In this document: piece after piece, positions 20,447 to 40,361 of the stretch
How positions within the stretch are numbered: the first letter of the stretch is position 1
How the letters are laid out: every line of letters starts with the position of its first letter
NCBI GenBank assembly: GCA_963665115.1
Contig: OY762007.1
Location: forward strand, 2,304,001-2,368,000
Direction of reading: 5' to 3'
Source of the DNA: an uncultured Rivularia sp.
Lineage (GTDB): Bacteria > Cyanobacteriota > Cyanobacteriia > Cyanobacteriales > Nostocaceae
Length of the DNA: 64,000 bases
Notes under the pieces: generated by a model
What the model was told of the DNA's origin: nothing
Seen by the model: only the letters and a program-made list of their open reading frames with translations
Databases searched by the model: none
Translations under genes and position numbers: made by a program

Positions 20447-23002
20447 ATGAAGAGATTCAAACATTTAATTTTAATACTTTTAATATCATTATTTTTAACT
20501 GTACTATCTCCTGTTTTAGCAACTTCGCAATTTGTTAGCTCTTCCAAAATAGAAAAATTAATCGAACAAGGTAAAATATATTACGATACAGGAAGATTTT
20601 CCGAAGCAATAAGTTTATTAAAACAGGTAGTTTTAAAATATCAAGCTGATGGAGATAAATTAAATCAAGCTATGAGTTTAAGCAATATTTCTTTAGCTTA
20701 TCAAAAATTAGGAAAATGGCAAGAAGCTGAAAAAACGATAAATCTTTCATTTAATTTATTGCAGCATTTACCAAAAAATAAAGTTTACGCTCAATCATTA
20801 GATATAAAAGGAAATTTGCAGTTCGCGAGGGGGCAATTTCAGAACGCGATCGCAACTTGGCAAAATGCAGAAAGGATTTACTCGCAACTGGATTTACAAC
20901 CGGCATTAATTCAATCGCGTATAAATCAAGCTCAAGCGATGCAGGCTTTGGGGCTATTTCTGAAAGCACAAAAGACTTTGATTTCGGTTCGGGAAAGTTT
21001 AAATAAACAACCAAATTCTATTTTAAAATCTATTGGCTTGCGTAGTCTAGGAGATGTTTTCCGAATTATTGGCAATGTGGATGAATCTCAACAAGTTTTG
21101 CTGCAAAGCTTGAATGTAGCATCTTCGATAAAAGCGAATCAACAAATAAGCGAAACTTTAGTCAGTCTGGGAAATACAGTTCGCATTCAACAAGAAGAGG
21201 ACTCTCAAACTTCAGCAATTAAATATTATCGGCAAGCAGCTAATACAGCACCTTCAAATTCTGTTCTACACTTACAAGCTCGATTAAATATTTTGAATTT
21301 GCTTGTAGAAACAGAAAATTTAAATCCTGCGAAACAATTAATTCCTCAAATCGATACTGAATTGCAAAATTTGATTCCCAGCCGTCAATCTATTTACACA
21401 AGGATAAACTTTGCGAAAACTCTGCAAAAATTTCAAGATCAAACTACTATAAAAAAATCTTCGCAGTTGAATATTGCTCGAATATTATCTACAGCAATTC
21501 AACAGGCGAAAACGATTCAAGATAAACGAGCCTTGGCATATGCACTAGGGAATCTTGGCGAAGTTTACGAACAAACCAAACAATACAAAGAAGCCGAGCA
21601 ACTGACTCAAAAAGCCTTAAATATGTCCAATTCTATTAGGGCTGAAGATATTACCTATCAATTACAATGGCAAATGGGAAGATTGTACAAAGAGCAGGGA
21701 GATATTAATAATGCGCTTGAATCTTATCATGCAGCGTGGCAAATTCTCAAATCTTTGCGTAGCGATTTGGTTGCGATAGATTCTAACGTACAATTTTCCT
21801 TCCGCGAGAGTATAGAACCAGTATACAGACAGTACGTCGATCTAATTTTAAAATCCTCCGAAAATAACAAACAAGATCAAAAACAACTTATCGTTGCTCG
21901 TGAAGTCATTGAATCTCTTCAGTTAGCGGAAATCGATAATTTTTTTAATTCTGCTTGTTTTAATACCAAAGTTGTGCTTGATAATATAATTGATAAAGAT
22001 AATTTGAAAGCAGCTATAATTTACCCGATCATTTTACCAGACCGATTGGAAGTTATTATAAAATTACCTCACTCTTCTCTTATAAGCTACTCTACTTCTA
22101 TATCAAAAAATCAGGTAGAAGAAACTATTAAAAAATTACGAAATGATATCGAGGAACGCAAGATTGGTAACGACGATCGAGCGCAGTTTCACAAGTTGTA
22201 TACTTGGTTGCTTCAACCCGCAGAAAAATATTTAGAAAACAATAAAATTGATAGTTTAATTTTTGTACTTGATGGTTATTTACGTAATATCCCTCCTGCG
22301 GCTCTTTACGATGGCAAACAATATTTGATAGAAAAATATAGTATCGCTCTAAGTCCTGGTTTACAACTATACGAATTAAAACCATTGCAAAAAACAAGTT
22401 TGAATGTATTGACGGGTGGATTGAGCGAGGAGCGCTCGAATTTTCCTAAACTTGATTATGTTGAACAAGAATTGCAGCAAATTAAGTCGCACGTATCGGA
22501 TGCCAAAATACTTCTCAACCAAGAATTTACTAGTGATGCTGTTGAAAAACAGGTGAACAAAAAATCATATTCTGTAGTTCACTTAGCAACTCATGGGCAA
22601 TTCAGTTCTAACTTCGATGAAACATTTCTTTTAGCATACGACGAGCGCATTAAAGTCACAAAACTCAGTCAATGGCTCCGTAATCGGGAAGAAAATCGTG
22701 CCAAAGCGATAGAGTTACTAGTTTTAAGTGCTTGCGAAACAGCGACTGGAGATAATGAGGCGGCATTGGGGCTTGCTGGTGTGGCTATTCAAGCAGGTGC
22801 GAGGAGTACAGTTGCATCTTTATGGGCTTTAAATGATGCTTCCACAGCCGAACTAATGGGAAAGTTTTATCAAGAATTAACGAAACCTAATATTACTAAA
22901 GCACAAGCTTTACGCAATGCCCAATTAACTTTATTGAAGCAAGAAGCATATAGTATTCCTTATTTTTGGGCACCTCATATTTTGATCGGAAATTGGCTTT
23001 AG
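20447..23002 (+). CDS. Exported TPR + CHAT (caspase-like) protease
   Basis: Signal peptide, TPR helices, HLATHGQF and VLSACETA catalytic His/Cys motifs. Confidence 0.92.
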   Translation: MKRFKHLILILLISLFLTVLSPVLATSQFVSSSKIEKLIEQGKIYYDTGRFSEAISLLKQVVLKYQADGDKLNQAMSLSNISLAYQKLGKWQEAEKTINLSFNLLQHLPKNKVYAQSLDIKGNLQFARGQFQNAIATWQNAERIYSQLDLQPALIQSRINQAQAMQALGLFLKAQKTLISVRESLNKQPNSILKSIGLRSLGDVFRIIGNVDESQQVLLQSLNVASSIKANQQISETLVSLGNTVRIQQEEDSQTSAIKYYRQAANTAPSNSVLHLQARLNILNLLVETENLNPAKQLIPQIDTELQNLIPSRQSIYTRINFAKTLQKFQDQTTIKKSSQLNIARILSTAIQQAKTIQDKRALAYALGNLGEVYEQTKQYKEAEQLTQKALNMSNSIRAEDITYQLQWQMGRLYKEQGDINNALESYHAAWQILKSLRSDLVAIDSNVQFSFRESIEPVYRQYVDLILKSSENNKQDQKQLIVAREVIESLQLAEIDNFFNSACFNTKVVLDNIIDKDNLKAAIIYPIILPDRLEVIIKLPHSSLISYSTSISKNQVEETIKKLRNDIEERKIGNDDRAQFHKLYTWLLQPAEKYLENNKIDSLIFVLDGYLRNIPPAALYDGKQYLIEKYSIALSPGLQLYELKPLQKTSLNVLTGGLSEERSNFPKLDYVEQELQQIKSHVSDAKILLNQEFTSDAVEKQVNKKSYSVVHLATHGQFSSNFDETFLLAYDERIKVTKLSQWLRNREENRAKAIELLVLSACETATGDNEAALGLAGVAIQAGARSTVASLWALNDASTAELMGKFYQELTKPNITKAQALRNAQLTLLKQEAYSIPYFWAPHILIGNWL

Positions 23003-25683
23003 AGAAAGTGGGGAATAGGGAGTAGGGAGTAGGGAGTAAGGAGTGGGAAGTAAGGAACAAAAAAGGAGAAGGACATAATATGTTGTCAATTATTAGAAGT
23101 CAAAGTTTTTACAATCGATTGGGTTGGATAATGCTGACGGGTATGCTTTTTATTTCACAAAAAGAGCCTGTATTTGCTCAAGTTAAACCAGACAGTAGTT
23201 TGCCATCGAATTCCCAGATAAATCAACAAGGAAATATTTACAATATCACTGGTGGAACTCGATCGGGAAACAATCTTTTTCACAGCTTTGAAAAGTTTGG
23301 AATTCCGTCGGGTGGTGAAGCTTATTTCAATAATCCAGTTGAGATTCAAAATATTATTAATCGAGTTACGGGTAAGTCAATATCAGAGATTAATGGTTTA
23401 ATTCGTGCTAACGGTACTGCTAATTTATTTTTAATTAATCCTAACGGCATTGTATTGGGTGAAAATGCCAAACTTGATATTGGTGGTTCTTTTATAGGCA
23501 GTACGGCTGATAGTTTTAAATTTAAGAATGGTAAGGAATTTAGTGCAATAAATCCTGAAGATAAGCCGCTGTTGAGCGTAAATGTGCCTTTGGGTTTGCA
23601 GTATGGGAAGAATCCTGGAAATATTGAAATTAAAGGTAAAGGTGATACGCAAAGAAACACACGAGAAGTATTTGAGCCAAAATCCGGCTTGCAAGTTCCT
23701 GTTAATAATACGCTAGCTTTGCTCGGTGGTGATGTTTTACTTGAAGGTGCGACGTTAAAAGCTAGTGGCGGAAGAATTGAATTAACTAGCCTCACAGGAG
23801 AAGGTTTAGTTAGTGTTTTACCTGTGGAAAAAGGTTTCAAATTCGGTTTTGAGAAATTGGATAATTTTGGGAAAATTGAACTATCTCGAAATACGGCAGT
23901 TGATGCTAATGGAAATGGCGCAGGTGATGTGTGGGTGACGGGTAAAAATGTCACTCTTGCAGATAGTTTCTGTAATTTCATCAACTCAAACTGGTACTGA
24001 AAAAGGTATGGGTATCGTAGTTAATGCCACCGAAAAGTTATATATCAATGGTATAAATGATACTTTCATGACTAGCGGTTTATACGCTAATAACGTTAGT
24101 GGAAATGCAATAATAGAAACGGGCAATATAGCGGTTAATACTCAGCAGTTAATAGTCCGAGATGGAGCTACCATTGCTACTAATACTTACAGTGATGGTA
24201 AAGGCGGAAATATCAATATTAAAGCGTCGAATTTGAGAATTGAAAATGGGGCTGTTGTTAGCGCGATCGTCAAGAGTTCTGGTAATGGCGGAAATATAGA
24301 TATTAATTCAGCACAGGTGCAAGTTATTGGAGTTGGAAATAATAATAATTTTAGTGAATTAAGTGTTTCTGCAAAGGAAAATTCAACAGGAAATACAGGA
24401 AATTTGAAGATTAACACTAATAATTTGCAGGTTGAAGATGGCGCATCTATCATAACTGCTACATTTGGTGAAGGCAATGGTGGAGATATGACAATTAATG
24501 CTACTTCTAAAATAGAATTGACTGGTCAAGGTGGCAACGAAAATGAATTTCCTAGTGCCTTATTTATTGTTGCAGAAAAACCTTCAACGGGAGATTCTGG
24601 TTCTTTAACTATTAATACAAAACAAATGCTTGTACAGAATGGAGCATTTGTTAGTGTTAGTAATAATGCTTCAGGCGGTGCAGGAGATTTGAAGATTACT
24701 ACTGATAATTTAATAATAAAAGATAATGCTCGTTTTTTTACAGGTAGAGTTAGTGAGGGTAAAGCAATCGGAGACTTAAGTATTAAAACTAATCATTTGC
24801 TTGTTGCAGGTGGCTCAACTGTAAAAGCTGGTACATCTGGTGAAGGTGGAAATTTGAATATTGATGCTCAATATGTACAAGTTATTGGTACGGGCAACGA
24901 TGGTAATACTCCTAGCTCTTTAACCTTATCGGCATCGCTAGGAAATAAGGGGAGTATAAATCTTAACGCTAAACGATTGCTAATTAAAGACGGAGCATCA
25001 GTGTCTGCTGGTACATCTAATGCAGGTGATGGAGGAAATTTGATTATCAATGCTCAGGATGTGCAAATCGTTGGAAAAGGCGGTAACGATCCTAAAAATA
25101 AAAATTTGCCATATCCGAGTGGTATATTTGTTCCAACAGAAGAGTTTGCAACCGGGGATGCAGGCAATTTGATTATTAATGCTAAACGAATGCTCGTACA
25201 AGATGGAGCATTTGTTAGTAGTGCTAGTAATGGTAGAGGCAATGGAGGAGATTTAATTATTAATGCCTCTCGCTTACAAGTGCAAGATGAGTCATCTGTA
25301 ATTTCTGGAACAAAGCGTAAAGGTACGGGTGGAAATTTAAAGATTACTGCTAATAGCGTGCTAGTTGAAGATGGAGCAAAAGTTAATGCTGGTACATCTG
25401 GTACGGGTAATGCAGGAAATTTGAATATTAATTCCGATACTATACGAGTTATAGATAAAGCTCAAGTTGCTGTAGAAAGTACGGGAACGGGAAATGCAGG
25501 TATCTTAACATTAGATGCTCGTTCTATCAGTTTAGATCGCAAAGCTTCACTTAATGCTAGTACGCAAAGTGCAGATTCTAATAATGAACAGGCAACAATT
25601 ATTATTAATAACGCACGGGATTTAATTCGTATCCGCTCAAAAAAATGGGGTAAAGGTACACCTTGCGTCGTAGAATATGAAGC

Positions 25684-27372
25684 ATGACGCAAAAACGATC
25701 ATCTAAAAAATTAGTCACAGCATTATTGCAATCAATCGACCCAAAACAGATTGCAGACGAGGACGTGCGTCAAACGGTAGAAGTATTACTCAACTTAATA
25801 GAACAGCTAAATGTAAAAATCAAAGAATTAGAAGAAGAAAATCAAAAACTACGTGATGAAAACAACCGCTTAAAAGGTGAACAAGGTAAACCAGACATCA
25901 AAGCGAATAAAAACAAAGGGTTTAAGAAAAACTATTCATCAGAAAAAGAACGAAAAATAGCAAAAGAACACAGTAAAGCAAGTAAAAACGAGTCTATCAA
26001 GATAAACCGAGAAGAGATTGTAGTTTACCCACAAGAACAATTACCAGCAGACGCACAGTTCAAGGGTTATGAGGAAGTAGTAGTCCAAGACATTTTACTT
26101 AAGCCAGATAACATACTGTTCCGCAAGCAAAAATACTACTCACCAGAAACAGGAAAAACTTATTTAGCGGAACTACCAACAGGTTACGAAGGTGAATTTG
26201 GTCCAGGAGTAAAAGCTTTGGTCATGAGTCTATATTATGGTGGAAACATGACCCAAGGGAAGTTATTAGAATTTTTAGAAGATATTGGTATCTCGATTAG
26301 TGCAGGAACAATATCAAATTTATTAATTAAAAACCAAGAATATTTTGAAGCTGAATACGAAGAAGTATACAAGGAAGGGTTAGCCAGCAGTCCTTGGCAA
26401 CACTTTGACCAAACAGGTGCGCGTGTTGCAGGAGTGAACCATACAACAAATGTGATTTGTAACCCCTTGTACACAATTTACCAAACAACGCGATACAAAG
26501 ACCGTTTGACTGTATTAAAAGTATTTCAAAACACAACCGAACTCTCCTTTGTTCTCAACGAGATGACCTATGAACTTTTGGAGACTTTTAAAGTTCCAAT
26601 TAAGTGGGTTAATAAACTAAAATTACTATCTCAACAGAAGGCTTTTACCGAAACTGAGTTTAATTTTTTGATTGGTGAGTACTTAAGTAGACTTGGTTCT
26701 CAACACCGTTCTCGCATATATGAATCGGCAGCAATTGCTTTTTATCATCAGCAATCAACTGTACCAGTAATTACAACTCTAGTATGCGATGATGCTCCGC
26801 AGTTCAAGTTAATAACATCGGATTTGGCTCTTTGTTGGGTGCATGAAGGACGACATTATAAGAAATTAAGTCCGCTTATACCTTGCCATCAAAAACTTTT
26901 AGATAATTTTCTAGAAAGATTCTGGGAATATTACAGAAAATTATTATCTTATCGAGATTCTCCAAGTTGGGATAAAGCTCACGAACTAGAAATGGAATTT
27001 TGGACACTTTTTACAGAAAAAAGTGGTTATCAACAGTTAGATGAGCGAAAACGATTAACTACTTTGAAAGTAAACGAGTTGCTTCTCGTGTTGGAGCATC
27101 CAGAATTACTATTGCATAACAACCCTGCCGAATTAGCTGCTAGGACTATGGTACAACGACGTAACATCAGTTACGCAACCCAGACAAAACAAGGCACAAA
27201 AGCGTGGGATGTTTTTATGTCCCTTGTTGACACTACTCGTAAGTTGGGTATCAGTTTTTATGAGTATATGCGTGACCGCATTTCTCAAGTTGAAAATATT
27301 CCATCTTTGGGGACAATTATTCGGAAGAAATCTTCTTCTAATTCCTATGGTTGGTCATGGATGCCTCAATAA
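25684..27372 (+). CDS. IS66-family DDE transposase
   Basis: N-terminal coiled coil; HFDQTG, VCDDA, CWVHEGRH, HNNPAELAAR. Confidence 0.88.
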   Translation: MTQKRSSKKLVTALLQSIDPKQIADEDVRQTVEVLLNLIEQLNVKIKELEEENQKLRDENNRLKGEQGKPDIKANKNKGFKKNYSSEKERKIAKEHSKASKNESIKINREEIVVYPQEQLPADAQFKGYEEVVVQDILLKPDNILFRKQKYYSPETGKTYLAELPTGYEGEFGPGVKALVMSLYYGGNMTQGKLLEFLEDIGISISAGTISNLLIKNQEYFEAEYEEVYKEGLASSPWQHFDQTGARVAGVNHTTNVICNPLYTIYQTTRYKDRLTVLKVFQNTTELSFVLNEMTYELLETFKVPIKWVNKLKLLSQQKAFTETEFNFLIGEYLSRLGSQHRSRIYESAAIAFYHQQSTVPVITTLVCDDAPQFKLITSDLALCWVHEGRHYKKLSPLIPCHQKLLDNFLERFWEYYRKLLSYRDSPSWDKAHELEMEFWTLFTEKSGYQQLDERKRLTTLKVNELLLVLEHPELLLHNNPAELAARTMVQRRNISYATQTKQGTKAWDVFMSLVDTTRKLGISFYEYMRDRISQVENIPSLGTIIRKKSSSNSYGWSWMPQ

Positions 27373-27583
27373 CACCCCTGTATATTAAGACTGTGCTAAA
27401 CCCTCATATCCTTGGTTGTAGAATACTGTAAAGTGCATGGATTAACCACATCTATTTCTTCATAGTTTTTATAAGCGATTGAAACTTTTTTAGTTACTTT
27501 GATAGCATATTTACAATTTACCTTATTTGCAACTTCCGCTATTAATCAATTTCTTGATTTTGATTATTTTTATTTATTTGTTG

Positions 27584-27743
27584 CTCTCACGAGAGATCCA
27601 GCAACTGGGGAAGATTTGGCGGCGACAGCGGAGTGCCAGGTGGGGGCACGATTATTTTCTGTGCCTATGTAAAATCTATCTGCCCCTACCTGGTACCGTC
27701 AAATCAGCGTAGCGGTTCCCCAGTTGCGCCGCTGCTTTTTTTT
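27584..27743 (+). ncRNA. Candidate structured RNA in IS right end
   Basis: Three nested helices (12, 10 and 15 bp) with G-U pairs only on the + strand, followed by T8. Confidence 0.5.
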
Positions 27744-28563
27744 ATCGTAGTTGACATTCAAGACAGCCGATACCCCGAAATTTTGAGGGGATACTTTAAT
27801 TCTACGTCGTGGTAGCAATATAACAACCAACGCCAAAGGTGAAAATGTCCGAGGTGGAAATATTAATATTGATAGCGAGATCGTAGCTGCCATTCCCGAT
27901 GAAAATAGCGATATTAGCGCTAATTCTGAAAACTTCCGTGGTGGTAATATTAAAATAGAAGCTCAAGGTATCTTTGGCACACAATTTAGAGAAAAACCCA
28001 CTTCCGAAAGCCATATTACAGCCACAGGTGCAAGTCAAGATTTAAGCGGTACCGTAGAAATTGAGACTCCCGATATCAATTCTACTAATGAATTATCAGA
28101 TTTACCCTCCATACCTATAAATAATAAGTTAGCCCAAGGCTGCTATAGTCCTGGTTATGCTCAAAATCAATTTTTTATAGTTGGGCGTGGTGGTTTACCA
28201 CCTTTACCGGAAGATTTCCTAACACCTTCAGCAGTGCGAGTTGACTGGGTAAGCCCTGATAAAAATGGCGAAACCAGTTTATTAAATAGAAATATTGAAG
28301 TCAAAACAACTATAGAAAAACCCAGACGTATTGTAGAAGCTACAGGTTGGATAAAAAACGATAAAGGTGAAATCATATTTACAGCAGATGCACCTGTAGC
28401 TACATCTAATAACTTTATAGAGAAAACGAAAAATTGTGAATTGGGAAGTAGGGAGTAGTGAAAAAACGTGTATGTTTCCCCTAAAAGTCTTGTTTAATTA
28501 ACATTTTGCACCATTGGTGTTAAATCCGAATTCCCGCCTTGAAATCAATTAAGGGAGCATAAT

Positions 28564-31500
28564 ATGCTAATGAATATTAAAAAACCAAGCCGCAATCGAT
28601 TGGGTTGGATAATGCTGACGCTGAGTATGCTTTTTATTTCACACAAAGAAGCAGCTTTTGCTCAAGTTAAACCAGACAGTAGTTTGCCATCGAATTCTCA
28701 AGTCAATCGACAAGGAAATATTTACAATATCACTGGTGGAACTCAATCGGGAAACAATCTTTTTCACAGTTTTGAAAAATTTGGAGTTCCGAATGGTGGT
28801 GAAGCTTATTTTAATAATGCAGTTGAGATTCAAAATATTATTAATCGAGTTACAGGTAAGTCAATATCAGAGATTAATGGTTTAATTCGTGCTAACGGTA
28901 CGGCTAATTTATTTTTGATAAATCCCAACGGTATTGTATTTGGTGAAAATGCCAAGCTTGATATTGGTGGTTCTTTTATAGGCAGTACGGCTGATAGTTT
29001 TAAATTTAATAATGGTAAGGAATTTAGTGCAATAAATCCTCAAGATAAGCCGTTGTTAAGCATAAATGTTCCTTTGGGTTTGCAGTATGGGAAGAATCAA
29101 ACAGGTAATATTACTAATTCAGGTAATCTGAGCGTTAATAATGGTAAAAGTATTACTCTTATTGGCAATAGTTTTGAAAATATAGGAAAAATAAAAACTG
29201 ATGGAGGACAAATATCTATAGCTGCGATCGGAAATGAAGGTTTTGCAACTTTAGGAGAATCTGGAGAATTATTAAATCTGGAATTTCAATCTGAAGATAC
29301 TGTTAATGGCAATGCAAATAATTTTGGAACCGTTATCAATAAAGGTAATATTGATGCTTCAATACAAGCGGGAATAGGTGGTAAAATAATTGTAGTGGGA
29401 GAAAGAATTGGTTTATTAGATAACTCGTTATTCGACGTTTCAGGAAGTGTGGGGGGCGGTGAAGTAAAAGTTGGAAATAATAATACAATTGCAGCTTATA
29501 TTGACCCAAAAGCATCTATAAAAGCTGATGCATTAATTGCAGGAAACGGCGGTAAAATTACGGTTTCGGCTACAGAATTAACTCGCGTGCATGGAAGTTT
29601 CAGCGCCAAAGGTGGTTTAAACAACGGGAATGGTGGTTTGGTTGAAAATAGGGGAAATGATTTTTTAGATATTACGGGTATATCTGTTGATACCAATGCG
29701 AATAATGGCTTGAATGGTAACTGGTTGCTTAACTCAGGTAATATATTCTTTGGTTCGCGAAACAATATTAATCCTACATTTAACAATAATAATTCTGCAA
29801 TTTTTCAACCAGCTAAAGCGGAGACAGTATTAGATGTTTCCACTATAGAGAAGCAGTTAAGTGCGGGAAATAATATCACAATTACAGCGAGTGAGACAGG
29901 AAGTGAAGTAGGAAATATTACAGCAGATAGAATTGATATTGCAGCACTAAATAATACTCCAGTCAGATTAACGCTTCAAGCCGATAACAATATTACTTTG
30001 TCAAAAGGTAATATCCAATCTACGAATAATCGCTTGGGTATGGTGTTGCAGGCAGATAGCGATAAAAACGGTTCAGGTAATATTAACCTTGGTAACGGAA
30101 GCCCACGAAGTTTTGAAATTGATACAAGTGGTGAAAAATTCACTGCATCCGCATCTGGTTCTATTTCATTTTCTGGTGCTGAGATTAAAAGTAGTAATAC
30201 GGAGGCAAAAGATTCAGAAACAATCGCGATCGCCACAGCAGGTTCTGTTATAGTTGAAAATAGCGGTATTATAAAAAAAGTATTTGCTTCGGGCAACAAT
30301 GGCGATATTTATATCGATGCAGACGCACTTTATCTACAGGGCGGAATTGAAAACAATACCAAAGTTAAGAGTAATGGGAATGCTGGAAGAATAAATATTA
30401 ATGTCAAATCTTTATCGATAACAAAGGGCGCTATAAATAATGTTACTGAAGGTAATGGTAATAGTGGTTCGACAATCATTGAAACAGAAAATTTTTTATT
30501 AAAAGAAGGTATAATTAGAAGCATTACAAAAGGTATTGGAAATGCTGGAGAAATTATTGTAAATTCTAATTCAGTTTCATTAGAAAACGGTAGTTTGTTC
30601 GCGAGAACTGAAGGTAATAGCGACGGTGGGAGTATCTCTGTGAATGCAAAACAGAAGATATTTATTGGAAATCGTGGTGGTTTAAATAGCAACTCTAATG
30701 GGCAAGGTAATGCTGGTAATATAACTGTAAATAGTGGTTCCTTAGTATTAAAAGATGATTCGACAATTACTTCTAATGCAAAAGAATTAAGCTCTCAAGG
30801 AAATGCAGGAAATATAAAAATTAATGCCGATTCTATTTTTTTGCTAGATAGTACGATCGAAGCAATCGCAAATCGTGGAGATGCAGGAGAAGTAATTCTT
30901 AAAGCCGATAACATTACTTTAAAAAATAGTTCTAATATTTCCACAAGTACCATAGATAATTCTATAAGTAATGCTGGGAAGATTGAAGTTATAGCTAAAT
31001 CTATTTTATTCGAGAACGAACCTGAATTTAAAAACAAAGATAACGAACCTAAAATAATTAATAGTTTGGGCAGTGTCACTAATGGCAAAGGTGATGCTGG
31101 GGAAATAACAATAGAAGCAGAAGAGATTATTTTGAAAAATAGAGGAGGAATTGGAATTGATACAAAAAATGAAGGCAATGCCGGTAAACTTACTATTAAT
31201 ACCTCTTTATTACAATTAGAAAACTCGCGAGTGCAAGATAACGCAGGGATAAATAGTAGTTCGAGTGGTTCTGGTAAGGCTGGGGAACTTACTATCAATG
31301 CGGACAGAATATTATTAGATAAAAGCGATATTGAAGCTCAAACTGAATCGGGAGATGGCGGTAATATTATCCTTAACTTGAAAGAACTTCTTCTATTACG
31401 TAATGGTAGCCGAATTTCTACTACGGCAGGCACGGCAGGTGGAGGGGGAAATGGCGGTAATATTGAAATTAATGCCCCTGATGGTTTCGTAGTTGCTATC

Positions 31501-32052
31501 CCGAATGAAAACAGCGATATTACCGCGAATGCTTTTGAAGGTGAAGGTGGTAATATTAAAATCACCGCTTCTGGTATATTCGGTATTCAAATTCGAGAAA
31601 ATCTAACTAAAAAAATTAGCGATATCAGTGCGAGTTCCGAGTTAGGTATAGACGGTACCGTTGAAATTAATACTCCCGATCTAAACCCTAATAATGAATT
31701 AGCCGAGTTACCATCTATACCTATTTACAGTCAATTAGCCCAAGGCTGCTATAGTCCAGGTTATGCTCAAAATCAATTTTTTGTAGTTGGGCGCGGTGGT
31801 TTACCGCCTTTACCTGAAGATTATCTTACACCTTCGGCAGTGCGAGTTGACTGGATAAATCCTCAACAAAATAGCAAAAACAATTTGCCTAATACAGATA
31901 TTGAAGTCAAAACAACTACAGAAAAACCCAAACGTATTGTAGAAGCTACGGGATGGATAACCAACGATAAAGGTGAAATTATATTCACAGCAAATGCACC
32001 TGTAGCTACAGCAGATAGTTCTATGCAGCAAGCTCAAAACTGTGAATTTTAA
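28564..32052 (+). CDS. Filamentous-haemagglutinin (TpsA-like) protein 2, intact
   Basis: Signal peptide, TPS domain, GNAGxIxI beta-helix-type repeats, C-terminal GRGGLP..EATGW domain. Confidence 0.92.
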
Positions 32053-32462: not shown

Positions 32463-32921
32463 TCATGCTTGCGATTTGTTTTGATTTCTGGTGGAAAGCC
32501 CCATCGACTTAAGCAAACGAGTAATGTGGTAGTTACTAAAACTGATGCCTAATTCTTTTGCAAGATGTTTGTTTAACCATTGTGCCGTCCAACGTTCAAA
32601 CGCATAACCGTACTCTCGCGGACTATTAGTTACAAGTTCTTTCAAACGTTGAGTATACTGTTCGTTGACGACTTTTGGTCTTCCAATCGGGGAATCATTC
32701 CACTTATAAAACTGACCTGTTTTTACGATACAAATCCAGCATCGTGCAGCTTCTTGAGAGCAGCCTAATTTTTTGCATATTTGTGCCTGTGATTCACCAG
32801 CGTCTGCAAGTAACATGATGTGAATACGACGACGAAATTCTGGACGTAAATCATGCTCAAGATTTTTTTGCAATAACTGACGTTGGCAAGATGTTAAGAA
32901 TAAACTTTGAGCGACTTTCAT
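32463..32921 (-). CDS. Stand-alone IS630-like HTH protein (no DDE domain)
   Basis: RRRIHIMLLADAG..GRPK..SPREYGY..RWTAQWL; stops before any catalytic domain. Confidence 0.8.
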   Translation of the reverse strand: MKVAQSLFLTSCQRQLLQKNLEHDLRPEFRRRIHIMLLADAGESQAQICKKLGCSQEAARCWICIVKTGQFYKWNDSPIGRPKVVNEQYTQRLKELVTNSPREYGYAFERWTAQWLNKHLAKELGISFSNYHITRLLKSMGLSTRNQNKSQA

Positions 32922-33060: not shown

Positions 33061-33093
33061 TTAGTTACTGCGTCGCTCAAACAAGTTTTTCGC
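33061..33093 (-). promoter_or_regulatory. Bipartite motif GCGAAAAAC-N12-CGCAGTAACTAA upstream of the HTH gene
   Basis: Matches the copy at 35006-35038 at 20 of 21 arm positions, same spacing. Confidence 0.6.
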
Positions 33094-33197
33094 TAATTAC
33101 AGCCTAAAAATCTTTTTCTCTTTAAAAGGAGAGGCTTGTATCCTTGGCTAAGGTTCGCAGTAAGCGATACATCATCTACTACGAACCTGTTAATTTT

Positions 33198-34127
33198 TTA
33201 AATCACAAAATATTCGCTGAGGCTTGCTTCTCCTAAAGCTATTTTGAGACTAAACCGCTCTCCAGGTTCGCCACTTAAATCTAACTTAATATGCTGATTC
33301 GATTGTTCTGTAGTTGTATTTATTATTGCTTGTTCGTACTCGTCAAACAGGATTATTTGCAAGTTTGCAGGTAAATAGTTTTGACTTAAGCTAGGTTTGA
33401 GTTCTATAAGAATATTAGTATTTGACTTTGATTCTGTGGTGATGGTAACAATCAAAGCTATTAATTCTTTGTGAGTTCCCAATTCTAAAAGTTTGCAGCG
33501 CTTCAAATTAGCTGCTTTAGATTTGCCTCTGAAAGCTAAAGCTGGCTGAGCGGCTCGTTCACCCAAAATTTCTACAGACTCCCAACCTGTTTCAAAAATA
33601 TTATTAAACCATTGACTGAGGTTCGCTAATGGTCTAAGTTTATGCAAATATGAGGGTAAAGCAAAAAGTGATTCTAGATCGTTTAGACTTAAATCGACTA
33701 TTGCTGCTGTATTTGGCTTAAATCCTCGTAATATAGCTTCTTTTTGCTTCTCATCAATTTCTACAACTACATAGCCAATCCTTTCCAGACCAACTGAAGG
33801 CGGAATCTCACAACTTAAAGCTCCCTTTTTAACAGGACGACATTCTAAAATACCTTTACCAGTAATCCATAAATCGGCTACGTCTTCAGTTAATCGTATC
33901 GAAGAGTTCCAACTATCTCCGGCTGTAATATTAGTGGAAATACCGATAATACGCAAATAATTATTAACAGCGCATACAGCAAGGGTATTTAGATAAACTT
34001 GTTGTGCCTTATTCGAGATTGGGTTAGGTTGCTCGTTAGCAAATTGCCGCGCGATGTGTAATATTTCTGTTGTTAAGGGTATCGGAATCGACCAATCCTC
34101 ATTTGAAAATTGGTTATTTGTATTCAT
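33198..34127 (-). CDS. DUF1822-family protein
   Basis: AQQVYLNTLAVCAVNNYL, LECRPV, RIGYVVV, LSQWFNNIFETGW, GERFSLKI. Confidence 0.85.
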   Translation of the reverse strand: MNTNNQFSNEDWSIPIPLTTEILHIARQFANEQPNPISNKAQQVYLNTLAVCAVNNYLRIIGISTNITAGDSWNSSIRLTEDVADLWITGKGILECRPVKKGALSCEIPPSVGLERIGYVVVEIDEKQKEAILRGFKPNTAAIVDLSLNDLESLFALPSYLHKLRPLANLSQWFNNIFETGWESVEILGERAAQPALAFRGKSKAANLKRCKLLELGTHKELIALIVTITTESKSNTNILIELKPSLSQNYLPANLQIILFDEYEQAIINTTTEQSNQHIKLDLSGEPGERFSLKIALGEASLSEYFVI

Positions 34128-34139: not shown

Positions 34140-34820
34140 TTAAGTATGTTTAGCGCTGCTAGGAAGAGTAGTTGAACCTTCAATATAACCTTGGGAAAAA
34201 CCGAATTCCCGCAGCAAAGGCAAGCATCTACGGTTGTAAAATTTGGGTAAATCTTTTGCTTCCTGTGGATTTAGGTTAAATTCTGCCGCAATAGTTTTCC
34301 AGGAAAGCGTATCTGGAGGAAGCCGCCTTAGAATTAAAGCTTGAGCGTTAATTTCCGGGCGTTTTCGGAAGCAAATACTGCTTAGTCGGTTGTCTGAATC
34401 TTTTTGCACCCATAGGATAGTTTTTTCCCAGATTTCCATAGCTGGTTGAATATCTGGAGAGGCAACTATATCATCTATCGGGTTATTTACTCCTTGTTCT
34501 GTTTGTTTTGCGATAAGAAATCGTCGTTGTTGTCTATATTTACCATCTCGCATTCTCCTCAATCGCTTTTTAAGTTCATCATCAAGCCAAACAATCGGAC
34601 CTTTGATATCCGGATTGTATTCTTCTAGATGTTCGCAACAATACTCCCACATTTCTTGGAGAGCATCATTATAGTACGATGTATGTTCTTTCCAAAGCTT
34701 GCCAGATTTCATTACTAACAGATGCACCTTAGCCAACACTTGCTGACGCTCCAAGCTTTGGGGTGGATATTCACAGGCAGTAGTAATAAGTTGGCGGAGT
34801 TTTAAATCTAGCTCGTTCAT
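34140..34820 (-). CDS. Divergent sigma-70/ECF-like factor
   Basis: Resembles cyanobacterial sigma-like proteins found next to DUF1822 (YYNDALQEMW..YNP..W; SWKTIAAEF HTH; FYNRRCLPLLR). Confidence 0.65.
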   Translation of the reverse strand: MNELDLKLRQLITTACEYPPQSLERQQVLAKVHLLVMKSGKLWKEHTSYYNDALQEMWEYCCEHLEEYNPDIKGPIVWLDDELKKRLRRMRDGKYRQQRRFLIAKQTEQGVNNPIDDIVASPDIQPAMEIWEKTILWVQKDSDNRLSSICFRKRPEINAQALILRRLPPDTLSWKTIAAEFNLNPQEAKDLPKFYNRRCLPLLREFGFSQGYIEGSTTLPSSAKHT

Positions 34821-35005: not shown

Positions 35006-35038
35006 TTAGTTACTACGATTAACATAGAGGTTTTTCGC
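35006..35038 (-). promoter_or_regulatory. Bipartite motif GCGAAAAAC-N12-CGTAGTAACTAA upstream of the sigma-like gene
   Basis: Second copy of the motif at 33061-33093. Confidence 0.6.
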
Positions 35039-35183
35039 AGATTTTTGTTAATTATTTTTTAATTGGGGATTGGTGTTTGGATAATTATTTCAGTGGTAAG
35101 TATGCTCAAGTCTCGATAAAAATCACTGAAATAGTTAGCATATAGGGATTTCTACACTCAATGGTTAAGATTATTAATTACTT

Positions 35184-35463
35184 CCTTCCCGCTCTATAAT
35201 TACCTATCTCTCTTGTCTTGAAAAGTTGTTCTCGAAGAGATTGCCTCCGGCTCACATGGGGGAAACCACGCCACTTCTCTCAACGCGCTTATCCCGCGCA
35301 CGAGAGTGGCTCCCCAAAACGGACACCTTATGTCCAATAGCCCTATGTCCTCCGGACAGGCTAAGCTAACAGGCATAGCCTTCGGCAACGGACACGCACC
35401 GCTAACGCTGCGCTCTCTGCGTCTAGTAAAGTTTTATTATACGTAATCATAAAGCCCGGAAAG
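35184..35463. mobile_element. Degenerate MITE-like element with GC-rich nested repeat fragments
   Basis: Imperfect IR CCTTCCCGCTCTATAATTAC / GTAATCATAAAGCCCGGAAAGG. Confidence 0.45.
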
Positions 35464-35636
35464 GAGTAGTATCAATATTAAAGAAAGTTTCAAAGTCGAA
35501 AATAGACGTTGTTTGATGGATAAGATGTAGTAGTGTTTATGCGTTCACCGCAAGCTGTTCTGCAAGGCAATGTGGGGCAGGGATTATATTTACCAGATTC
35601 TTTATAATTCATGCTGTAAAATATTTTTTTAAGATA

Positions 35637-36845
35637 ATGAGACTTAAAGCATTTAATCATATAACAGGCTTTTTTCAGGAGAAAACTGTTGACTTTGAAG
35701 AAGAAAATCTATCTAAATGTCTTATTGGGAGACATCCAAATTGTGATTTTATTATTAATAGTCCTGAAGTAAGTCGGGTACATGGTATTATTTTGTATCA
35801 ACATGAAAATTATTATTATATTGACCTTGCCAGTACCGATGCCTCTCGCATTAATAATCAAACTATTTTCGTAAATCAAAGTTCTCTTTTGCAATTAGAT
35901 GACGTAATTCGGATTGGGAATTTTGTTGTTTTCCTGGAATTTGATAACACAAATTTGGATTTCGACAGCGATATTTTTTTCAATTCAGAAACACCGATCG
36001 CTCAAACTCCAATTCAACAGCAGCCTCAGCAGGGAGAATTTATAGTTAGATGCTCTAATATTATTCAAGAAACAGATAATGTCAAAACATTTTGTTTGAT
36101 TGCAGAACCGCCTATTTTATTTAACGGTATATCATTTAACTATAAACCGGGGCAGTTTACGATGTTAGACTTAGAAATTGGGGATAAACGAATAAAACGT
36201 CCTTACTTTATTTCTTCAAGTCCTTCACGGCCTTATAACTTAGAAATAACTGTTAAGCGCTTTTCTCCATCAACTTTTCAACCAGATTTAACTTTAGGCT
36301 TAGTTGCTAATTGGTTGTACGATTATTTAAAAGTTGGAGATAAGCTTAAAATAAGTCCGCCAATGGGCGATTTCAATTATTTTGAAAATTCTTATAAGAA
36401 ACTTTTATTTATCTGTTCTGATATCGGGATTACACCTTTGATGTCTATGTCTCGTTGGCTTTGCGATACTAATACCGATTTTTCGGTAATTCTTATATAC
36501 AGTGCCCGCACGCAAAAAGACATTATCTTCCGAGAAGAGTTAGAATTGATGGCTTTAAGATATCCTAATTTCAAGTTAGCGATTAATTTAACTAGTCAAG
36601 ACTTTGATTTAAGTTGGTCTGGATATAGGGGCAGATTGAATGAGACAATGCTATCAGAAATCGCTCCCGACTTGAAAGAACGTGTTGCCTATGTTTGCGG
36701 ATCTGAAAGTTTTATTGAAAGCGTTAAAATGACGTTAGAAGAGCTACAATTCCCAATGCATAATTATTATCCAGAAAGTTTTATATCGAAAGGTACTAAA
36801 CCCGCTTTAACAATAAAGGTAAAGGGTAATAAGTTTATATTTTGA
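35637..36845 (+). CDS. FHA domain + FAD/NAD-binding (ferredoxin-reductase-like) protein
   Basis: IGRHP..VSRVHG FHA; YKPGQF, RPYFISS, IGITP, YVCG. Confidence 0.85.
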   Translation: MRLKAFNHITGFFQEKTVDFEEENLSKCLIGRHPNCDFIINSPEVSRVHGIILYQHENYYYIDLASTDASRINNQTIFVNQSSLLQLDDVIRIGNFVVFLEFDNTNLDFDSDIFFNSETPIAQTPIQQQPQQGEFIVRCSNIIQETDNVKTFCLIAEPPILFNGISFNYKPGQFTMLDLEIGDKRIKRPYFISSSPSRPYNLEITVKRFSPSTFQPDLTLGLVANWLYDYLKVGDKLKISPPMGDFNYFENSYKKLLFICSDIGITPLMSMSRWLCDTNTDFSVILIYSARTQKDIIFREELELMALRYPNFKLAINLTSQDFDLSWSGYRGRLNETMLSEIAPDLKERVAYVCGSESFIESVKMTLEELQFPMHNYYPESFISKGTKPALTIKVKGNKFIF

Positions 36846-37046
36846 AGGTAATAAATGAACATATATTGAATTCAAAATAAAAAATGCAAAATAAAAAATC
36901 AATTATATCTCAATTTTTAATTGTTCAATTAAGGATACAAGTTTCTTCTTTTAAGGAGAAAAAGATAAAAACGTATTATGACGCTTCAAGCCTCAGACTT
37001 TAGGTAATGGTAATTTCTAATTCTAAAATCCAAAATTGAATGGCTG

Positions 37047-39350
37047 ATGAGAAAATTAGTAGTGTTGAAACTTGATGGTGATTTGCGATCGCAAGTGCGA
37101 GTCACGTTAGAAATTGGTTACGAAGGGGCACGTCCAATTACGGAGGTTGCTTGTACCTTACCTGCCATGCCGCAGATGGTAAAAGCAATTGATGAATGGT
37201 ACTCGCTAAGCGGTAGTTTAAGTCAATTTACCCGTATTAAGGTTAATAAAATCGTTTATGGCTCTCTGTCCGAAAATAGGCGAGATTGCTATAAAAAAGC
37301 CTGCGAGTTACGTAATTATCTGAATGAATGGCTGATGTGCGATTCGTTTCGTCCGATTCGTGAAAAGTGGCTGAAATATTTGATGCCATCGGATGAAATA
37401 CGAGTATTAATTAGCACGAATAATCTACAGCTTAAAAAACTTCCCTGGCATTTATGGGATTTGGTCGATCGCGATTATCCCAAAGCTGAAATTACTTTGA
37501 GTGCTTATAATTCAGATCGAATACAGGTGCCGCAGACATCTATCTATGGAAAGAAAATTAAGATTTTAGCTATTTTAGGTAACAGCGATGGAATTGATGT
37601 CAGACAAGATAGAGAGTTGTTAGAAAATTTAAAAAATGCGGAAACAACTTTTTTAGTACAACCTCAACGACAAGAAATAAACGAACAGCTATGGAATCAA
37701 AATTGGAATATTTTATTTTTTGCCGGTCATAGTCAGACTGAAGACAATACGGGTAGAATCTATATTAATCAAGAAGATAGCCTGACAATTGCAGAACTTA
37801 GGTATGCTTTAAAAAATGCTGTTAATAACGGTTTGCAGTTAGCAATTTTTAATTCTTGCGATGGATTGGGATTGGTGAGCGAGCTACAAGATTTGTGTAT
37901 TGGGCAAATTATTGTCATGAAGGAACCAGTACCGGATTTTGTTGCTCAACAATTCTTAAAGTATTTTCTGACAACTTTTTCTGCTGGAGAGTCTATATAT
38001 ATTGCGGCTCGTAAAGCTAGAGAAAAATTACAAGGTTTAGAAGCAGAATATCCTGGTGCTAGCTGGCTGCCGATAATATGCGAACATTCCACAATTAAAC
38101 CGATGCAGTGGAAGCTAAGGGTTAATTCTCTAAAGAATTGCTTTAAAACATTGGTTTTAGCCAGTTTGTTAATGACAAGTTTAGTCGTGGGAGTACGGCG
38201 ACTGGGATTTCTGGAAAAATGGGAGCTACAGAATTACGATTTATTAATGCGATCGCGTCCCGATGAAGGACCTTCGGAAAGGTTATTGGTGGTGGGAATT
38301 AGAGAAACAGATTTTCAGCTACCCGAACAAAAAGATAGAAAAGGGTCTTTAGCTGATGGTGCATTACACAAGTTGTTACAAAAGCTTGAACCTCATCAAC
38401 CCAGAGCGATCGGGTTGGATATCTTTCGCGATTTTCCGGTAGACTCCGAACAACAACAATTAAAAACTCAATTAATAAAGAGCGATCGTTTTTTTGCAAT
38501 ATGTCATGTAGGGGAACCGAACGGAGAATCTCAGGGAATAGCACCTCCTCCAGAAATACCGGAACAGCGTCTTGGTTTCAGTAACGTTCTGCTTGATGAT
38601 GATGGTATTTTACGTCGTTACATTCTATCAATGGATGTAAGGAGTAGCTCGAATTGTCCTACTACCTGGTCTTTTGGTTTTCAATTGGCACTACATTATT
38701 TAAAAGATGAAGGAATTGCACCAAAATTTAACCAGGGAAATTGGCAATTAGGTGATGTTGTTTTTACACGTTTAAAACAACTTAATGGTGGCTATCAAAC
38801 AGCAGATACTTGGGGAAATCAGATATTACTTAATTATCGTTCCTATCGTTCTCCCAACCAAATTACCGATATAGTCTCTCTCGAAGATGTCTTAGCGGGT
38901 AGGCTGGCACCGGAACAAATCAAAGATAAGATTATTATTATTGGTGTAATGACTTCAACTTCCAGCGACCATTTTCGCACTCCTTACAGCGAGAAATTAC
39001 CACCATCTCAACAATACACTCCAGGAGCAATAGTACACGCTCAAATAGCTAGCCAGATACTGAATTCAGTGTTAGATAAACGTCCTTTGTTATCGGCAAT
39101 ATCACTTTGGGGAGAAATATTGTGGATTGGGACTTGGAGTTTTATTGGAGGAATTTTAGCTTTGCGGATTCGTTCGTTACGTTTATTAGTAGGTGCTAAT
39201 TTAATTGCTATTATAATTATATACGGAGCCTGCCTTGTTCTATTTATCAAAGGTGTTTGGTTGCCACTAATTCCGTCAAAATTAACACTGTTGTCAACTA
39301 CAGGATGTTTGGTAATTGTTTATAAATATAAACCACAACTGCGACTTTAA
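37047..39350 (+). CDS. CHAT-like protease + CHASE2 transmembrane receptor
   Basis: LPWHLWD, FFAGHS, IFNSCDG; one TM, CHASE2 (IGLDIFRD, DDDGILRR, PGAIVHAQ), three C-terminal TMs. Confidence 0.9.
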   Translation: MRKLVVLKLDGDLRSQVRVTLEIGYEGARPITEVACTLPAMPQMVKAIDEWYSLSGSLSQFTRIKVNKIVYGSLSENRRDCYKKACELRNYLNEWLMCDSFRPIREKWLKYLMPSDEIRVLISTNNLQLKKLPWHLWDLVDRDYPKAEITLSAYNSDRIQVPQTSIYGKKIKILAILGNSDGIDVRQDRELLENLKNAETTFLVQPQRQEINEQLWNQNWNILFFAGHSQTEDNTGRIYINQEDSLTIAELRYALKNAVNNGLQLAIFNSCDGLGLVSELQDLCIGQIIVMKEPVPDFVAQQFLKYFLTTFSAGESIYIAARKAREKLQGLEAEYPGASWLPIICEHSTIKPMQWKLRVNSLKNCFKTLVLASLLMTSLVVGVRRLGFLEKWELQNYDLLMRSRPDEGPSERLLVVGIRETDFQLPEQKDRKGSLADGALHKLLQKLEPHQPRAIGLDIFRDFPVDSEQQQLKTQLIKSDRFFAICHVGEPNGESQGIAPPPEIPEQRLGFSNVLLDDDGILRRYILSMDVRSSSNCPTTWSFGFQLALHYLKDEGIAPKFNQGNWQLGDVVFTRLKQLNGGYQTADTWGNQILLNYRSYRSPNQITDIVSLEDVLAGRLAPEQIKDKIIIIGVMTSTSSDHFRTPYSEKLPPSQQYTPGAIVHAQIASQILNSVLDKRPLLSAISLWGEILWIGTWSFIGGILALRIRSLRLLVGANLIAIIIIYGACLVLFIKGVWLPLIPSKLTLLSTTGCLVIVYKYKPQLRL

Positions 39351-39494
39351 GATAGTTCCAACTTACGGTTGATATCGCTCGGAGTAAAATTTTTATACAA
39401 TGTGCAGGGAATAGAGATGTACGCTTATTTTTTTGAAGCGTAGAACGCATACTATACCTTTCAGAATATGCACAATAGCCCTATGTAATTGATT

Positions 39495-40361
39495 ATGCTT
39501 AAAAACCAATACTATCAGCAATTATTAAAGTTTTTATTTGTAACAAATTTAATATTTATAAATTCCATACCCGTTACTGCTCAAAAAACAAATCCATCTA
39601 CAAATAGAAAAACAAATAATACATCCCAACCAAATAAAAAGAAACCAGAAAATAGAAATAACTTTAATCGAAAGCGTCATCAAGAAACACCCCCACGCAG
39701 TAGAGTCCGTGGGAACTCTGTATACTTTAGACAACCCCAAAGGCAAGGAACACCACAAGGTACGAGAGCAGCAGGAAGTCGTAATAGTTGTCCAATAGCA
39801 GAAGAAATGCCACTGAGCGCTTTAGTACCGATTACGAAAAAAGCAGATGGAAGAGAATTACGTTGGGGGTTAACAACGAAAGAAAATCCAACATTTTGGT
39901 TTTACGTTCCCCATAAATTAAAATCTATAAAAAATGCTAAATTTTCTTTACGAAATCGGCGAAACAACACGATTTACGAAAAAGAATTACAGCTGGCTGA
40001 TACACCGGGATTAATTAGCGTTTCCCTTCCAGCTAATGCACTATCTTTAAAAGTTGGTGAATGGTATCAATATTATTTATTTATGGATATTGACTGTAAT
40101 TTAAACAGATCTCGTAAAGAATTCGCTCAAGCATGGGTGAAAAGAGAAGCAATTGCTTCTGGTTTTGAATCTAAATTGGAAAGAATATCTCCACGTCAGC
40201 GAGGATTATTCTACGCAAAAAATGGTATTTGGTATGATGCGATGGTATCTTTTGCCAAACTTAAATATGCATCTGGAACAAACTCAGAGTGGATGCAAAT
40301 GTTAGACTCGATCGGTTTAAGTGAATTTTCTCAGATACCAGTAATTGATTGCTGTAAGTAA
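39495..40361 (+). CDS. DUF928-domain exported protein
   Basis: Signal peptide; AGSRNSC..LSALVP, PTFWFYVP, NGIWYDA. Confidence 0.88.
   Translation: MLKNQYYQQLLKFLFVTNLIFINSIPVTAQKTNPSTNRKTNNTSQPNKKKPENRNNFNRKRHQETPPRSRVRGNSVYFRQPQRQGTPQGTRAAGSRNSCPIAEEMPLSALVPITKKADGRELRWGLTTKENPTFWFYVPHKLKSIKNAKFSLRNRRNNTIYEKELQLADTPGLISVSLPANALSLKVGEWYQYYLFMDIDCNLNRSRKEFAQAWVKREAIASGFESKLERISPRQRGLFYAKNGIWYDAMVSFAKLKYASGTNSEWMQMLDSIGLSEFSQIPVIDCCK

Follow-up and report, generated by a model that had tools for sequence, protein, structure and literature searches.

Does a cyanobacterial membrane receptor with a caspase-like protease domain free a sigma factor by cutting the protein that holds it? The question is raised by a locus at positions 20447–40361 of a 64,000-nucleotide stretch of DNA, hereafter the window, from an uncultured Rivularia sp. 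(contig OY762007.1, positions 2,304,001 to 2,368,000 of the forward strand). Genes for a TPR-CHAT protease, TpsA-like proteins, a DUF928 protein, a CHASE2 receptor with a CHAT protease domain, a DUF1822 protein and a sigma-like factor lie together at this locus, in a genome that is a single 8.69-Mb contig carrying hetF, hetZ and patU and whose nearest related loci are labelled Calothrix, Rivularia and Richelia. An initial annotation had read these genes as one pathway, in which an envelope or contact signal activates the receptor, the receptor cleaves DUF1822 acting as an anti-sigma factor, and the sigma-like factor is released. It had also held that no mechanistic description of such a pathway was known. 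On this last point it has to be corrected, since a computational description with a proteolytic proposal exists: Kaur, Iyer, Burroughs and Aravind (eLife 2021; PMC8195603) catalogued neighbourhoods of EACC2-caspase, extracytoplasmic function (ECF) sigma and DUF1822 genes in silico, calling DUF1822 a TPR protein and proposing autopeptidase activation with a sigma output.

Both the set of genes and a hypothesis of proteolysis have been in print since that 2021 study (PMC8195603), and the locus is a real, conserved member of this class known from computation. What we add is its relationship to HetF, a two-domain model of DUF1822 in which a cut site can be proposed, two exact promoter sites, a helix-turn-helix (HTH) target, a split into two modules and a recent break in TpsA1. 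No experimental study of these cassettes was found in the literature searched, which lay outside most subscription journals, and the portions of PMC3482391 and PMC9679502 covered here hold nothing on this system. Our preferred reading is that the receptor caspase cuts DUF1822 after R200 and so frees an ECF sigma factor that reads its own promoter and that of the HTH gene; as a whole, we regard it as evenly poised between right and wrong.

The sigma factor, the DUF1822 protein and the receptor-protease

The open reading frame (ORF) at 34140..34820 (− strand; 226 amino acids, aa) has no Pfam or NCBIfam match of its own, and searches of PDB sequences with it gave nothing useful. It is predicted to be a divergent ECF-type sigma factor from its AlphaFold2 (AF2) model, which was built from an 84-sequence alignment (pLDDT 84.7). 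Among VIA fold matches the top 8 rows were all ECF sigma factors (Z 8.1–9.8), the best being region 2 of SigC (Z 9.8, root-mean-square deviation (rmsd) 2.0, 81 aligned, residues 1–91), and sigma-4 matches covered residues 115–216 (Z 5.4–7.0). Foldseek returned nothing at E ≤ 0.001 with this model; its top rows were nearly all sigma factors. Sequence relatives numbered 175, many of them named as sigma-70 family. All 12 DUF1822 genes of this genome have a co-oriented gene directly upstream, and among the 11 such genes outside the window, 5 match sigma70-ECF (E < 1e-5), 2 match sigma models weakly and 4 match none, one of the latter being a clear relative of the window sigma. Both the sigma fold that had been suspected from the sequence and the 12-bp gap between this gene and DUF1822 are upheld.

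The DUF1822 protein (33198..34127, − strand; 309 aa; Pfam E 3.5e-58) is our candidate anti-sigma factor. Its AF2 model (pLDDT 85.4) comprises two domains and a linker in which pLDDT drops below 50 at residues 191–202. This predicted-disordered segment contains R200 (codon 33528–33530), an Arg found in 73 of 79 DUF1822 sequences against 58/79 for the next-best linker column (the set includes the window and leaves out a 175-aa fragment and a gene-less contig); three of the six sequences without R200 have an Arg a few residues away. The C-domain is an Ig-like sandwich (Z 7.7, modest), and the N-domain resembles PD-(D/E)xK nucleases, its best matches having the fold of Holliday-junction resolvases or of homing endonucleases (Z 8.8, 8.7 and 7.9, with Hjc at Z 8.8, rmsd 2.9 and 101 aligned; again modest). 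A DUF1822 profile gave 0 matches among PDB sequences and Foldseek gave nothing at E ≤ 0.001 with the model. TRADD-N, TPR and Csx30 folds were absent among the matches listed, an absence that does not exclude them.

A nuclease-like N-domain invites a different account, in which cutting DUF1822 sets a PD-(D/E)xK nuclease free, DNA or RNA is damaged by it in an abortive response and the sigma factor is an accessory. We consider this very unlikely. The fold matches would suit it, as would the conservation of D85, E95 and R97 in this subtype and the counter-invader framing that Kaur et al. give to such systems (PMC8195603), but D85 and E95 are accompanied by Arg97 where the nuclease motif has Lys (register by eye), the Z of the N-domain is only near 8, the D/E/R triad occurs in at most 5/12 paralogues here (by eye), and the genes predicted as targets in relatives belong to the envelope and not to defence.

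In two of eight extra regions fetched (L148 and L149) the C-terminal module of DUF1822 sits on unrelated N-termini; in L148 it directly precedes an EACC2-CHAT gene and in L149 it retains the W..W..R linker. The supplement of Kaur et al. likewise contains 'TRADD-N+TPRs' rows labelled DUF1822 (PMC8195603). Because the module occurs on such unrelated N-termini, we infer that linker and sandwich may form a protease-recognition tag for which the N-domain is cargo. Among the DUF1822 proteins of the window and L001–L011, five carry an ADL..ECR-like motif, four of them following short sigma genes (215–232 aa) and one a 375-aa gene; the seven without it mostly follow long genes (395–523 aa). Very distant DUF1822 matches in L150–L152 follow a 480–570-aa gene; those of L150 and L151 lie near a gene resembling methylthioribose-1-phosphate isomerase (by eye), and that of L152 precedes a degenerate CHAT-CHASE2 gene.

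The third core protein is a membrane receptor-protease (37047..39350, + strand) with an EACC2-like domain and CHAT caspase (CHAT E 1.4e-11), a transmembrane (TM) helix, CHASE2 (E 8.5e-58) and C-terminal helices; its hydropathy peaks lie at residues 365–381, 718–734 and 742–758. As had been annotated, its N-terminal CHAT domain keeps AGHS (H228) and NSCDG (C271), and both are invariant in 64/64 sequences longer than 330 aa. The EACC2-like domain was assigned with a window-seeded profile, and its architecture and neighbours match rows of Kaur et al. (PMC8195603). Searching this genome with a profile of the receptor's first 160 aa yields 13 ORFs, and CHAT follows in all of them. Their C-terminal parts include CHASE2, nSTAND1 and a periplasmic binding domain; in L065 a phosphonate-binding one occurs. 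Against PDB sequences the receptor profile found one CHAT protein, 8tl0 (E 0.087). In hhalign the receptor's cytoplasmic part aligns with HetF at 99.5% (E 4.8e-23, 288 columns), whereas its match to the exported TPR-CHAT reaches only 73%. D297 is present in 63/64 receptors, and HetF has an equivalent Asp after the catalytic Cys in 15/15. In separase, D2151 binds the P1 Arg, and D297, together with D797 of the TPR-CHAT protease, may occupy that position. The receptor is not a HetF orthologue (NF045509 35.5 bits, against a cut-off of 1200), its protease module alone being homologous; the true HetF (1361.7 bits), HetZ (641.9 bits) and PatU are encoded elsewhere in this genome. HetF cuts PatU3 between R117 and S118 (PMC9457339), and PatU3 inhibits the ECF sigma factor HetZ in Anabaena PCC 7120 (PMC13342950).

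Conservation was assessed in the best 80 of 576 related loci, annotated with profiles seeded from this genome; the 42 of them with 8 kb on each side are called long loci below. DUF1822 directly follows the sigma gene in 79/80, the exception being a 1.1-kb contig, and among long loci 38/42 hold an EACC2-like CHAT gene, which is fused to CHASE2 in 34/42. DUF1822 is found in 43/61 genomes searched within this class, with 12 copies in the present one, and nine of these 12 lie ≤6 kb from an EACC2-CHAT gene (null mean 0.28; 9 reached in 0/2000 placements). In the same genome DUF928 lies ≤1 kb from CHASE2 in 8/13 cases and ≤12 kb from TpsA in 11/13, and TPR-CHAT lies near TpsA in 10/16; across these four pairings the null means were 0.12–0.94 and the observed values were reached in 0/2000 placements. 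By the genome null and the 80 loci, co-occurrence is far beyond chance. The exact layout of the window is confined to L017–L027. Mirror-distance correlations between partners were all 0.60–0.85 (21 shared loci), values that kinship explains and that do not separate the pairs.

The promoter motif and the proposed release of the sigma factor

A shared motif, TGCGAAAA..CGTnTAACT, precedes 23 of 37 non-redundant sigma genes in leave-one-out scoring (76 upstream regions pruned to 37), against 0.05 in shuffles. The form found in the local clade is one base longer and stands before the sigma gene in 11/12 loci and before the HTH gene in 9/9. Training on 29 sites of related loci, of which some are very close, gave a model that finds two strong sites in this genome, both in the window. 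One, with a score of 46.1, is the predicted autoregulated promoter of the sigma-DUF1822 operon (35008..35041, − strand; GCGAAAAA-N13-CGTAGTAACT), where alignment A4 shows a conserved island; the other, with 45.6, is the predicted sigma-dependent promoter of the HTH gene (33063..33096, − strand; GCGAAAAA-N13-CGCAGTAACT). The next site scored 26.0, and two shuffled genomes gave none above 20. A regular expression (regex) for the motif gave 63 matches against 0.6 in shuffled sequence, a contrast that is partly circular since the regex was shaped on the same loci; in relaxed form it gave 29 genome matches against 10–17 in shuffled sequence, with no further clear target. It is very probable that the window sigma reads this motif. 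The site scoring 26.0, at G000:C1:854668 (+), lies 613 bp before a split gene resembling a FIST-domain protein (by eye) and was not counted.

The HTH protein (32463..32921, − strand; 152 aa) is of the IS630-ORF-A type (HTH_23/28/33) and occurs in 8/42 long loci. It matches only model positions 1–114 of 299 of the IS630 transposase, and no DDE ORF adjoins it. Its dN/dS of about 0.07–0.10 against 7 relatives indicates purifying selection, by which an origin as mere transposon debris was rejected; because it is under such selection, the gene is likely a domesticated second-tier regulator and a target of the sigma factor. Relatives of the HTH gene adjoin HlyB/HlyD-like type I secretion genes (by eye) in L126 (552–5786), L084 (3440–9276) and L091 (3508–9397), and in L084 and L091 this cluster is divergent from the sigma gene. 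In L022 (11805–16014) and L025–L027, DUF1822 and HTH are separated by an RTX-repeat gene, a 536–566-aa gene resembling vanadium haloperoxidase (by eye) and one small gene.

In 8/12 clade loci a third, divergent copy of the motif faces the 4Fe-4S membrane-protein gene (where kept), FHA-reductase and receptor; the window has neither this copy nor the 4Fe-4S membrane-protein gene. Outside sigma upstream regions we counted 28 copies. Some of them stand before genes for exosortase O along with a PEP-CTERM protein (in L036), for a TPS-CHAT protein (in L072), for Asp-rich repeat proteins (L041–L043, L050, L054, L062) and for unnamed proteins (L064, L073); copies in L034, L058 and L065 have no gene ahead in that orientation, and none of the 28 stands before a TPR-CHAT gene. 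Back-to-back copies occur at L065 14050–14116 and L034 9905–10007; one faces an exosortase-like gene in L065 and the other the 3' end of the receptor gene.

Following these observations, we propose that a signal at CHASE2 turns on the cytoplasmic caspase, which is predicted to cut DUF1822 after R200. DUF1822 would bind and inhibit the sigma factor until the cut relieves this inhibition, and the cut protein would probably be degraded further, as proposed for PatU3 and Csx30. The freed sigma factor is predicted to transcribe its own operon and the HTH gene, and in relatives it may also induce the receptor operon and genes of the cell surface. The CHASE2 signal is likely to come from, or be shaped by, DUF928, the exported TPR-CHAT and TpsA. 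The intact catalytic dyad, the HetF-like module, the linker Arg, the modelled ECF fold and the motif are all consistent with the cleavage and release of the initial annotation, which we retain as a prediction from sequence and models. Of its parts, we lean towards DUF1822 being the receptor's substrate, and we hold its action as an anti-sigma factor to be as plausible as the contrary.

Several points weigh against this proposal. The 80 loci are mutually related, so that the counts drawn from them overstate independence, and the genome placement null takes no account of island clustering. R200 is kept in 9/12 loci without a visible EACC2 gene as compared with 63/66 with one, a weak contrast; among the 12 paralogues here the Arg does not fall in one column, and two show Lys. 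Alternatively, the conserved Arg may serve in binding, and the N-domain conserves D85/E95/R97 at 0.96–0.99, which a plain anti-sigma factor would not need. With a fixed-length model, the motif was found before TPR-CHAT in 0/12 cases, the receptor gene in 0/37, DUF928 in 0/24 and TpsA in 1/13; this model misses the clade form, and regex and clade scans add none before these four genes. As regards HetF, DUF1822 aligned with PatU in hhalign at only 1.1% over its whole length, 5.9% for the C-domain and 0.3% for the N-domain (shallow profiles), and BLASTP found no match between them. The PatU Arg that is in register with R200 is invariant in 47/47, but comparison of the profiles does not establish homology. 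Nor is the window sigma HetZ: NF037963 matches three other places in the genome, and hhalign gave 0.7%. Because homology between DUF1822 and PatU and between the two sigma factors was undetected, it is from the protease and the architecture that the analogy with HetF is drawn.

Alternatively, the receptor caspase might cut itself, as the published self-cleavage proposal has it (PMC8195603), or cut DUF1822 into an activator, DUF1822 being an adaptor or chaperone that the sigma factor needs. An obligate partner of either sign would suit two genes 12 bp apart under one promoter, and DUF1822 is without a known anti-sigma fold. Even so, we find this doubtful: HetF, the closest characterised relative of the receptor, cuts a separate protein in trans, the conserved Arg lies in a loose linker of DUF1822, and it is general knowledge that partners co-transcribed with ECF sigma factors are usually inhibitors, as PatU3 is too.

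The exported proteins and the proposed CHASE2 input

Every domain named at the outset is present, and the genes form three blocks and not one operon: TPR-CHAT, TpsA1 and TpsA2 (+); sigma, DUF1822 and HTH (−); and FHA-reductase, receptor and DUF928 (+). The export signals discussed here were assessed by hydropathy and eye alone. The TPR-CHAT protease (20447..23002, + strand; 851 aa; Pfam CHAT E 2.7e-58 plus TPRs) has a hydrophobic stretch at residues 7–25, a predicted Sec signal peptide. Catalytic H716 and C763 are invariant in 27/27 sequences longer than 700 aa, as is D797 (27/27), which agrees with the exported protease with intact His and Cys of the initial annotation. Against PDB sequences it gave only generic TPR matches. 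A conserved element upstream of its gene could be the terminator region of the preceding gene. Immediately upstream of TPR-CHAT lies a gene for an ELWxxDGT-repeat protein with an RTX-type tail (18593–20257, +), which may belong to the exported block; similar repeat genes hold the same position in L017, L019 and L021.

Two TpsA-like proteins had been proposed. Domains of the two-partner secretion (TPS) type, with a signal peptide by eye, are indeed present at 23080 and 28564, but TpsA1 is a pseudogene and TpsA2 alone is intact. TpsA1 (23080..28459, + strand; TPS E 7.4e-68), of the filamentous-haemagglutinin type, is split in its reading frame by an extra base near 23967 and is interrupted by an IS66-type element (25629..27794, + strand; 2166 bp; Pfam DDE_Tnp_IS66), after which its tail picks up beyond 27794. 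The element, not a member of the system, has terminal inverted repeats, an 8-bp target duplication and a transposase ORF at 25684–27372, and has 10 identical copies in the genome. Among public runs over 22500–29500, X1 has both lesions, X3 is without the extra base, X4 has neither lesion and an empty IS site, and coverage in X5 is too low. The break is real but recent, because X1 carries both lesions and X4 shows the empty site; a pure assembly error was rejected, as X1 contigs hold the extra base and the IS junctions.

TpsA2 (28564..32052, + strand; 1162 aa; TPS E 1.2e-53) is unbroken and shares 60% identity with TpsA1 in the head and 64% in the tail. A single TpsA stands at this position in the five closest loci showing both neighbours (L017–L019, L021, L023). 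The Cys-containing C-terminal domain of TpsA2 is conserved across 52 sequences, and no toxin domain was found in the protein; a toxin of the contact-dependent inhibition (CDI) type was rejected for TpsA, given the conserved C-terminus and no immunity gene seen.

The DUF928 protein (39489..40361, + strand; 290 aa) was correctly named in the initial annotation (Pfam E 1.8e-46), and its export is likewise predicted. Its N-terminal part has a conserved Gly/Ser-Arg motif before C101, with R98 kept at 0.91 of 43. An Atlas search gave no named relative, the best match (0.85) being unnamed. In the supplement of Kaur et al., genes given as 'TM+beta_rich+TPRs' and TPRs+CASPASE come after one given as EACC2+CASPASE+CHASE2+TM+TM (PMC8195603); the 'beta_rich' gene would correspond to DUF928, a name not used in the text or the supplement files searched (file 13 excepted).

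DUF928 is found in 25/34 long loci with fused CHASE2 and in 0/8 without it; for TPR-CHAT or TpsA the corresponding counts are 25/34 and 2/8. Of eleven other CHASE2 genes scanned in this genome, one has adenylate cyclase as its output, two each have histidine kinase, Ser/Thr kinase, GGDEF or GGDEF-EAL, and AAA_35, and two have no recognised output. Because DUF928, TPR-CHAT and TpsA track CHASE2, and other CHASE2 proteins have varied outputs, the locus divides into two separable modules, a core of sigma factor, DUF1822 and receptor caspase and an input set that tracks CHASE2. The earlier idea that TpsA, TPR-CHAT and DUF928 activate the receptor has its basis in this co-occurrence; the exported module is probably tied to CHASE2 in function, and DUF928 is a candidate CHASE2 partner. 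By sequence, the DUF928 R98 motif and the TpsA C-terminal domain are candidate targets of the exported protease.

It is also possible, if rather unlikely, that TPR-CHAT and TpsA form a secretion and maturation unit, in which the TpsA fibre is processed by the exported protease, that shares the island with the sigma cassette and sends it no signal. The varied outputs of the 11 other CHASE2 genes leave the exported genes untied to the sigma factor, DUF1822 lies ≤12 kb from TpsA in just 5/12 cases, TPS-CHAT fusions exist (4/80 loci) and no motif precedes TPR-CHAT; against such separateness, DUF928, TPR-CHAT and TpsA track CHASE2 and not the sigma factor, which argues for a shared input pathway. 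Another reading, to which we assign a similarly low probability, is a two-protease relay across the envelope; HetF/PatU3/HetZ would then be one fixed case in a large class of caspase-gated sigma switches rich in paralogues. Here the exported TPR-CHAT, switched by the TpsA fibre's C-terminal domain, would cut DUF928 at the Gly/Ser-Arg motif; cut DUF928 would serve CHASE2 receptors as their protein ligand, irrespective of the output domain they carry; and the HetF-like caspase of the receptor would then cut DUF1822 at Arg200, freeing the ECF sigma factor.

The third block opens with a gene for an FHA plus FAD/NAD reductase (35637..36845, + strand; 402 aa; Pfam), which the domain scan confirmed together with the HTH gene. 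It is clade-specific (5/42 long loci), measuring 396–409 aa in L017–L019 and 470–527 aa in L021–L027; the window protein is shorter than most of its relatives' and without the 2Fe-2S domain found in L022. A second FHA-reductase, at G000:C1:35063-38182, is accompanied by a 559-aa membrane-protein gene resembling one lost from the window locus, and neither a sigma gene nor the motif was found next to it. L012 (G000:C1:2436000-2453000), at a distance of about 100 kb, contains a paralogue of the window's EACC2-CHAT-CHASE2/DUF928/TpsA/TPR-CHAT cluster, in which CHASE2 is spread over two ORFs and DUF1822 is missing. The locus is flanked by a photosystem II D2-like gene (13841–14956, −; by eye) and a D-Ala-D-Ala carboxypeptidase S13 gene (40984–42519, +).

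Relation to known systems

If the proposal is true, cyanobacteria would have in caspase-like receptor proteases a general means of releasing ECF sigma factors, and the heterocyst HetF/PatU3/HetZ circuit would be a special case. The locus offers a small and complete test, with two catalytic cysteines, a predicted cut site at R200 and two exact promoter sites, and it fits the E. coli reconstitution previously used for HetZ. In addition, the link between CHASE2 and DUF928 is a clue to the stimulus of CHASE2 domains.

The closest published counterpart is the EACC2-caspase class, which shares the constant N-terminal module and caspase, a variable C-terminus that includes CHASE2, and ECF sigma and DUF1822 neighbours. 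The portions of that description covered here give no cut site, promoter or regulon and do not include TpsA, whereas our model of DUF1822 is nuclease-like and Ig-like (PMC8195603). On the exported side, the TpsA proteins share the secretion domain of two-partner secretion systems and differ in their conserved C-terminus and in having no TpsB in the locus; five ShlB matches occur genome-wide, the nearest 209 kb away. In the CHASE2/FecR/TPR clusters, too, a CHASE2 receptor has an exported partner and a TPR protein as neighbours, but the output is a cyclase, where that of the window would be a protease and a sigma factor (PMC9239204).

The initial annotation had drawn its parallel to type III-E CRISPR systems, and the logic is indeed shared. 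In the type III-E CASP system the protein that holds an ECF sigma factor has two domains and is cut by a CHAT protease, and the locus itself contains sites for that sigma factor: RNA activates Csx29 through Cas7-11, and the CHAT protease of Csx29 cuts Csx30 (PMC10028731, PMC9729208). Csx29 has a Lys in place of the Arg-binding Asp of separase (PMC9729208) and is RNA-activated, whereas in the window export is predicted for the TPR-CHAT, and a membrane receptor is likely to do the cutting. The 14 ORFs scanned include no Cas family, the 20 largest of 24 repeat families in 15000–45000 include nothing CRISPR-like, and DUF1822 has no Csx30 match by profile or fold among the matches listed. With no Cas gene or array, this parallel is weaker than the HetF/PatU3/HetZ precedent. 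There, too, a membrane CHAT protease acts on an Arg-cut partner encoded beside an ECF-type sigma factor that the partner inhibits; HetF has periplasmic TPRs where the window receptor has CHASE2, and the DIF1 promoter motif TCCGGA is unlike that of the window. By this analogy, HetF/PatU3/HetZ is a better model for the locus than type III-E CRISPR.

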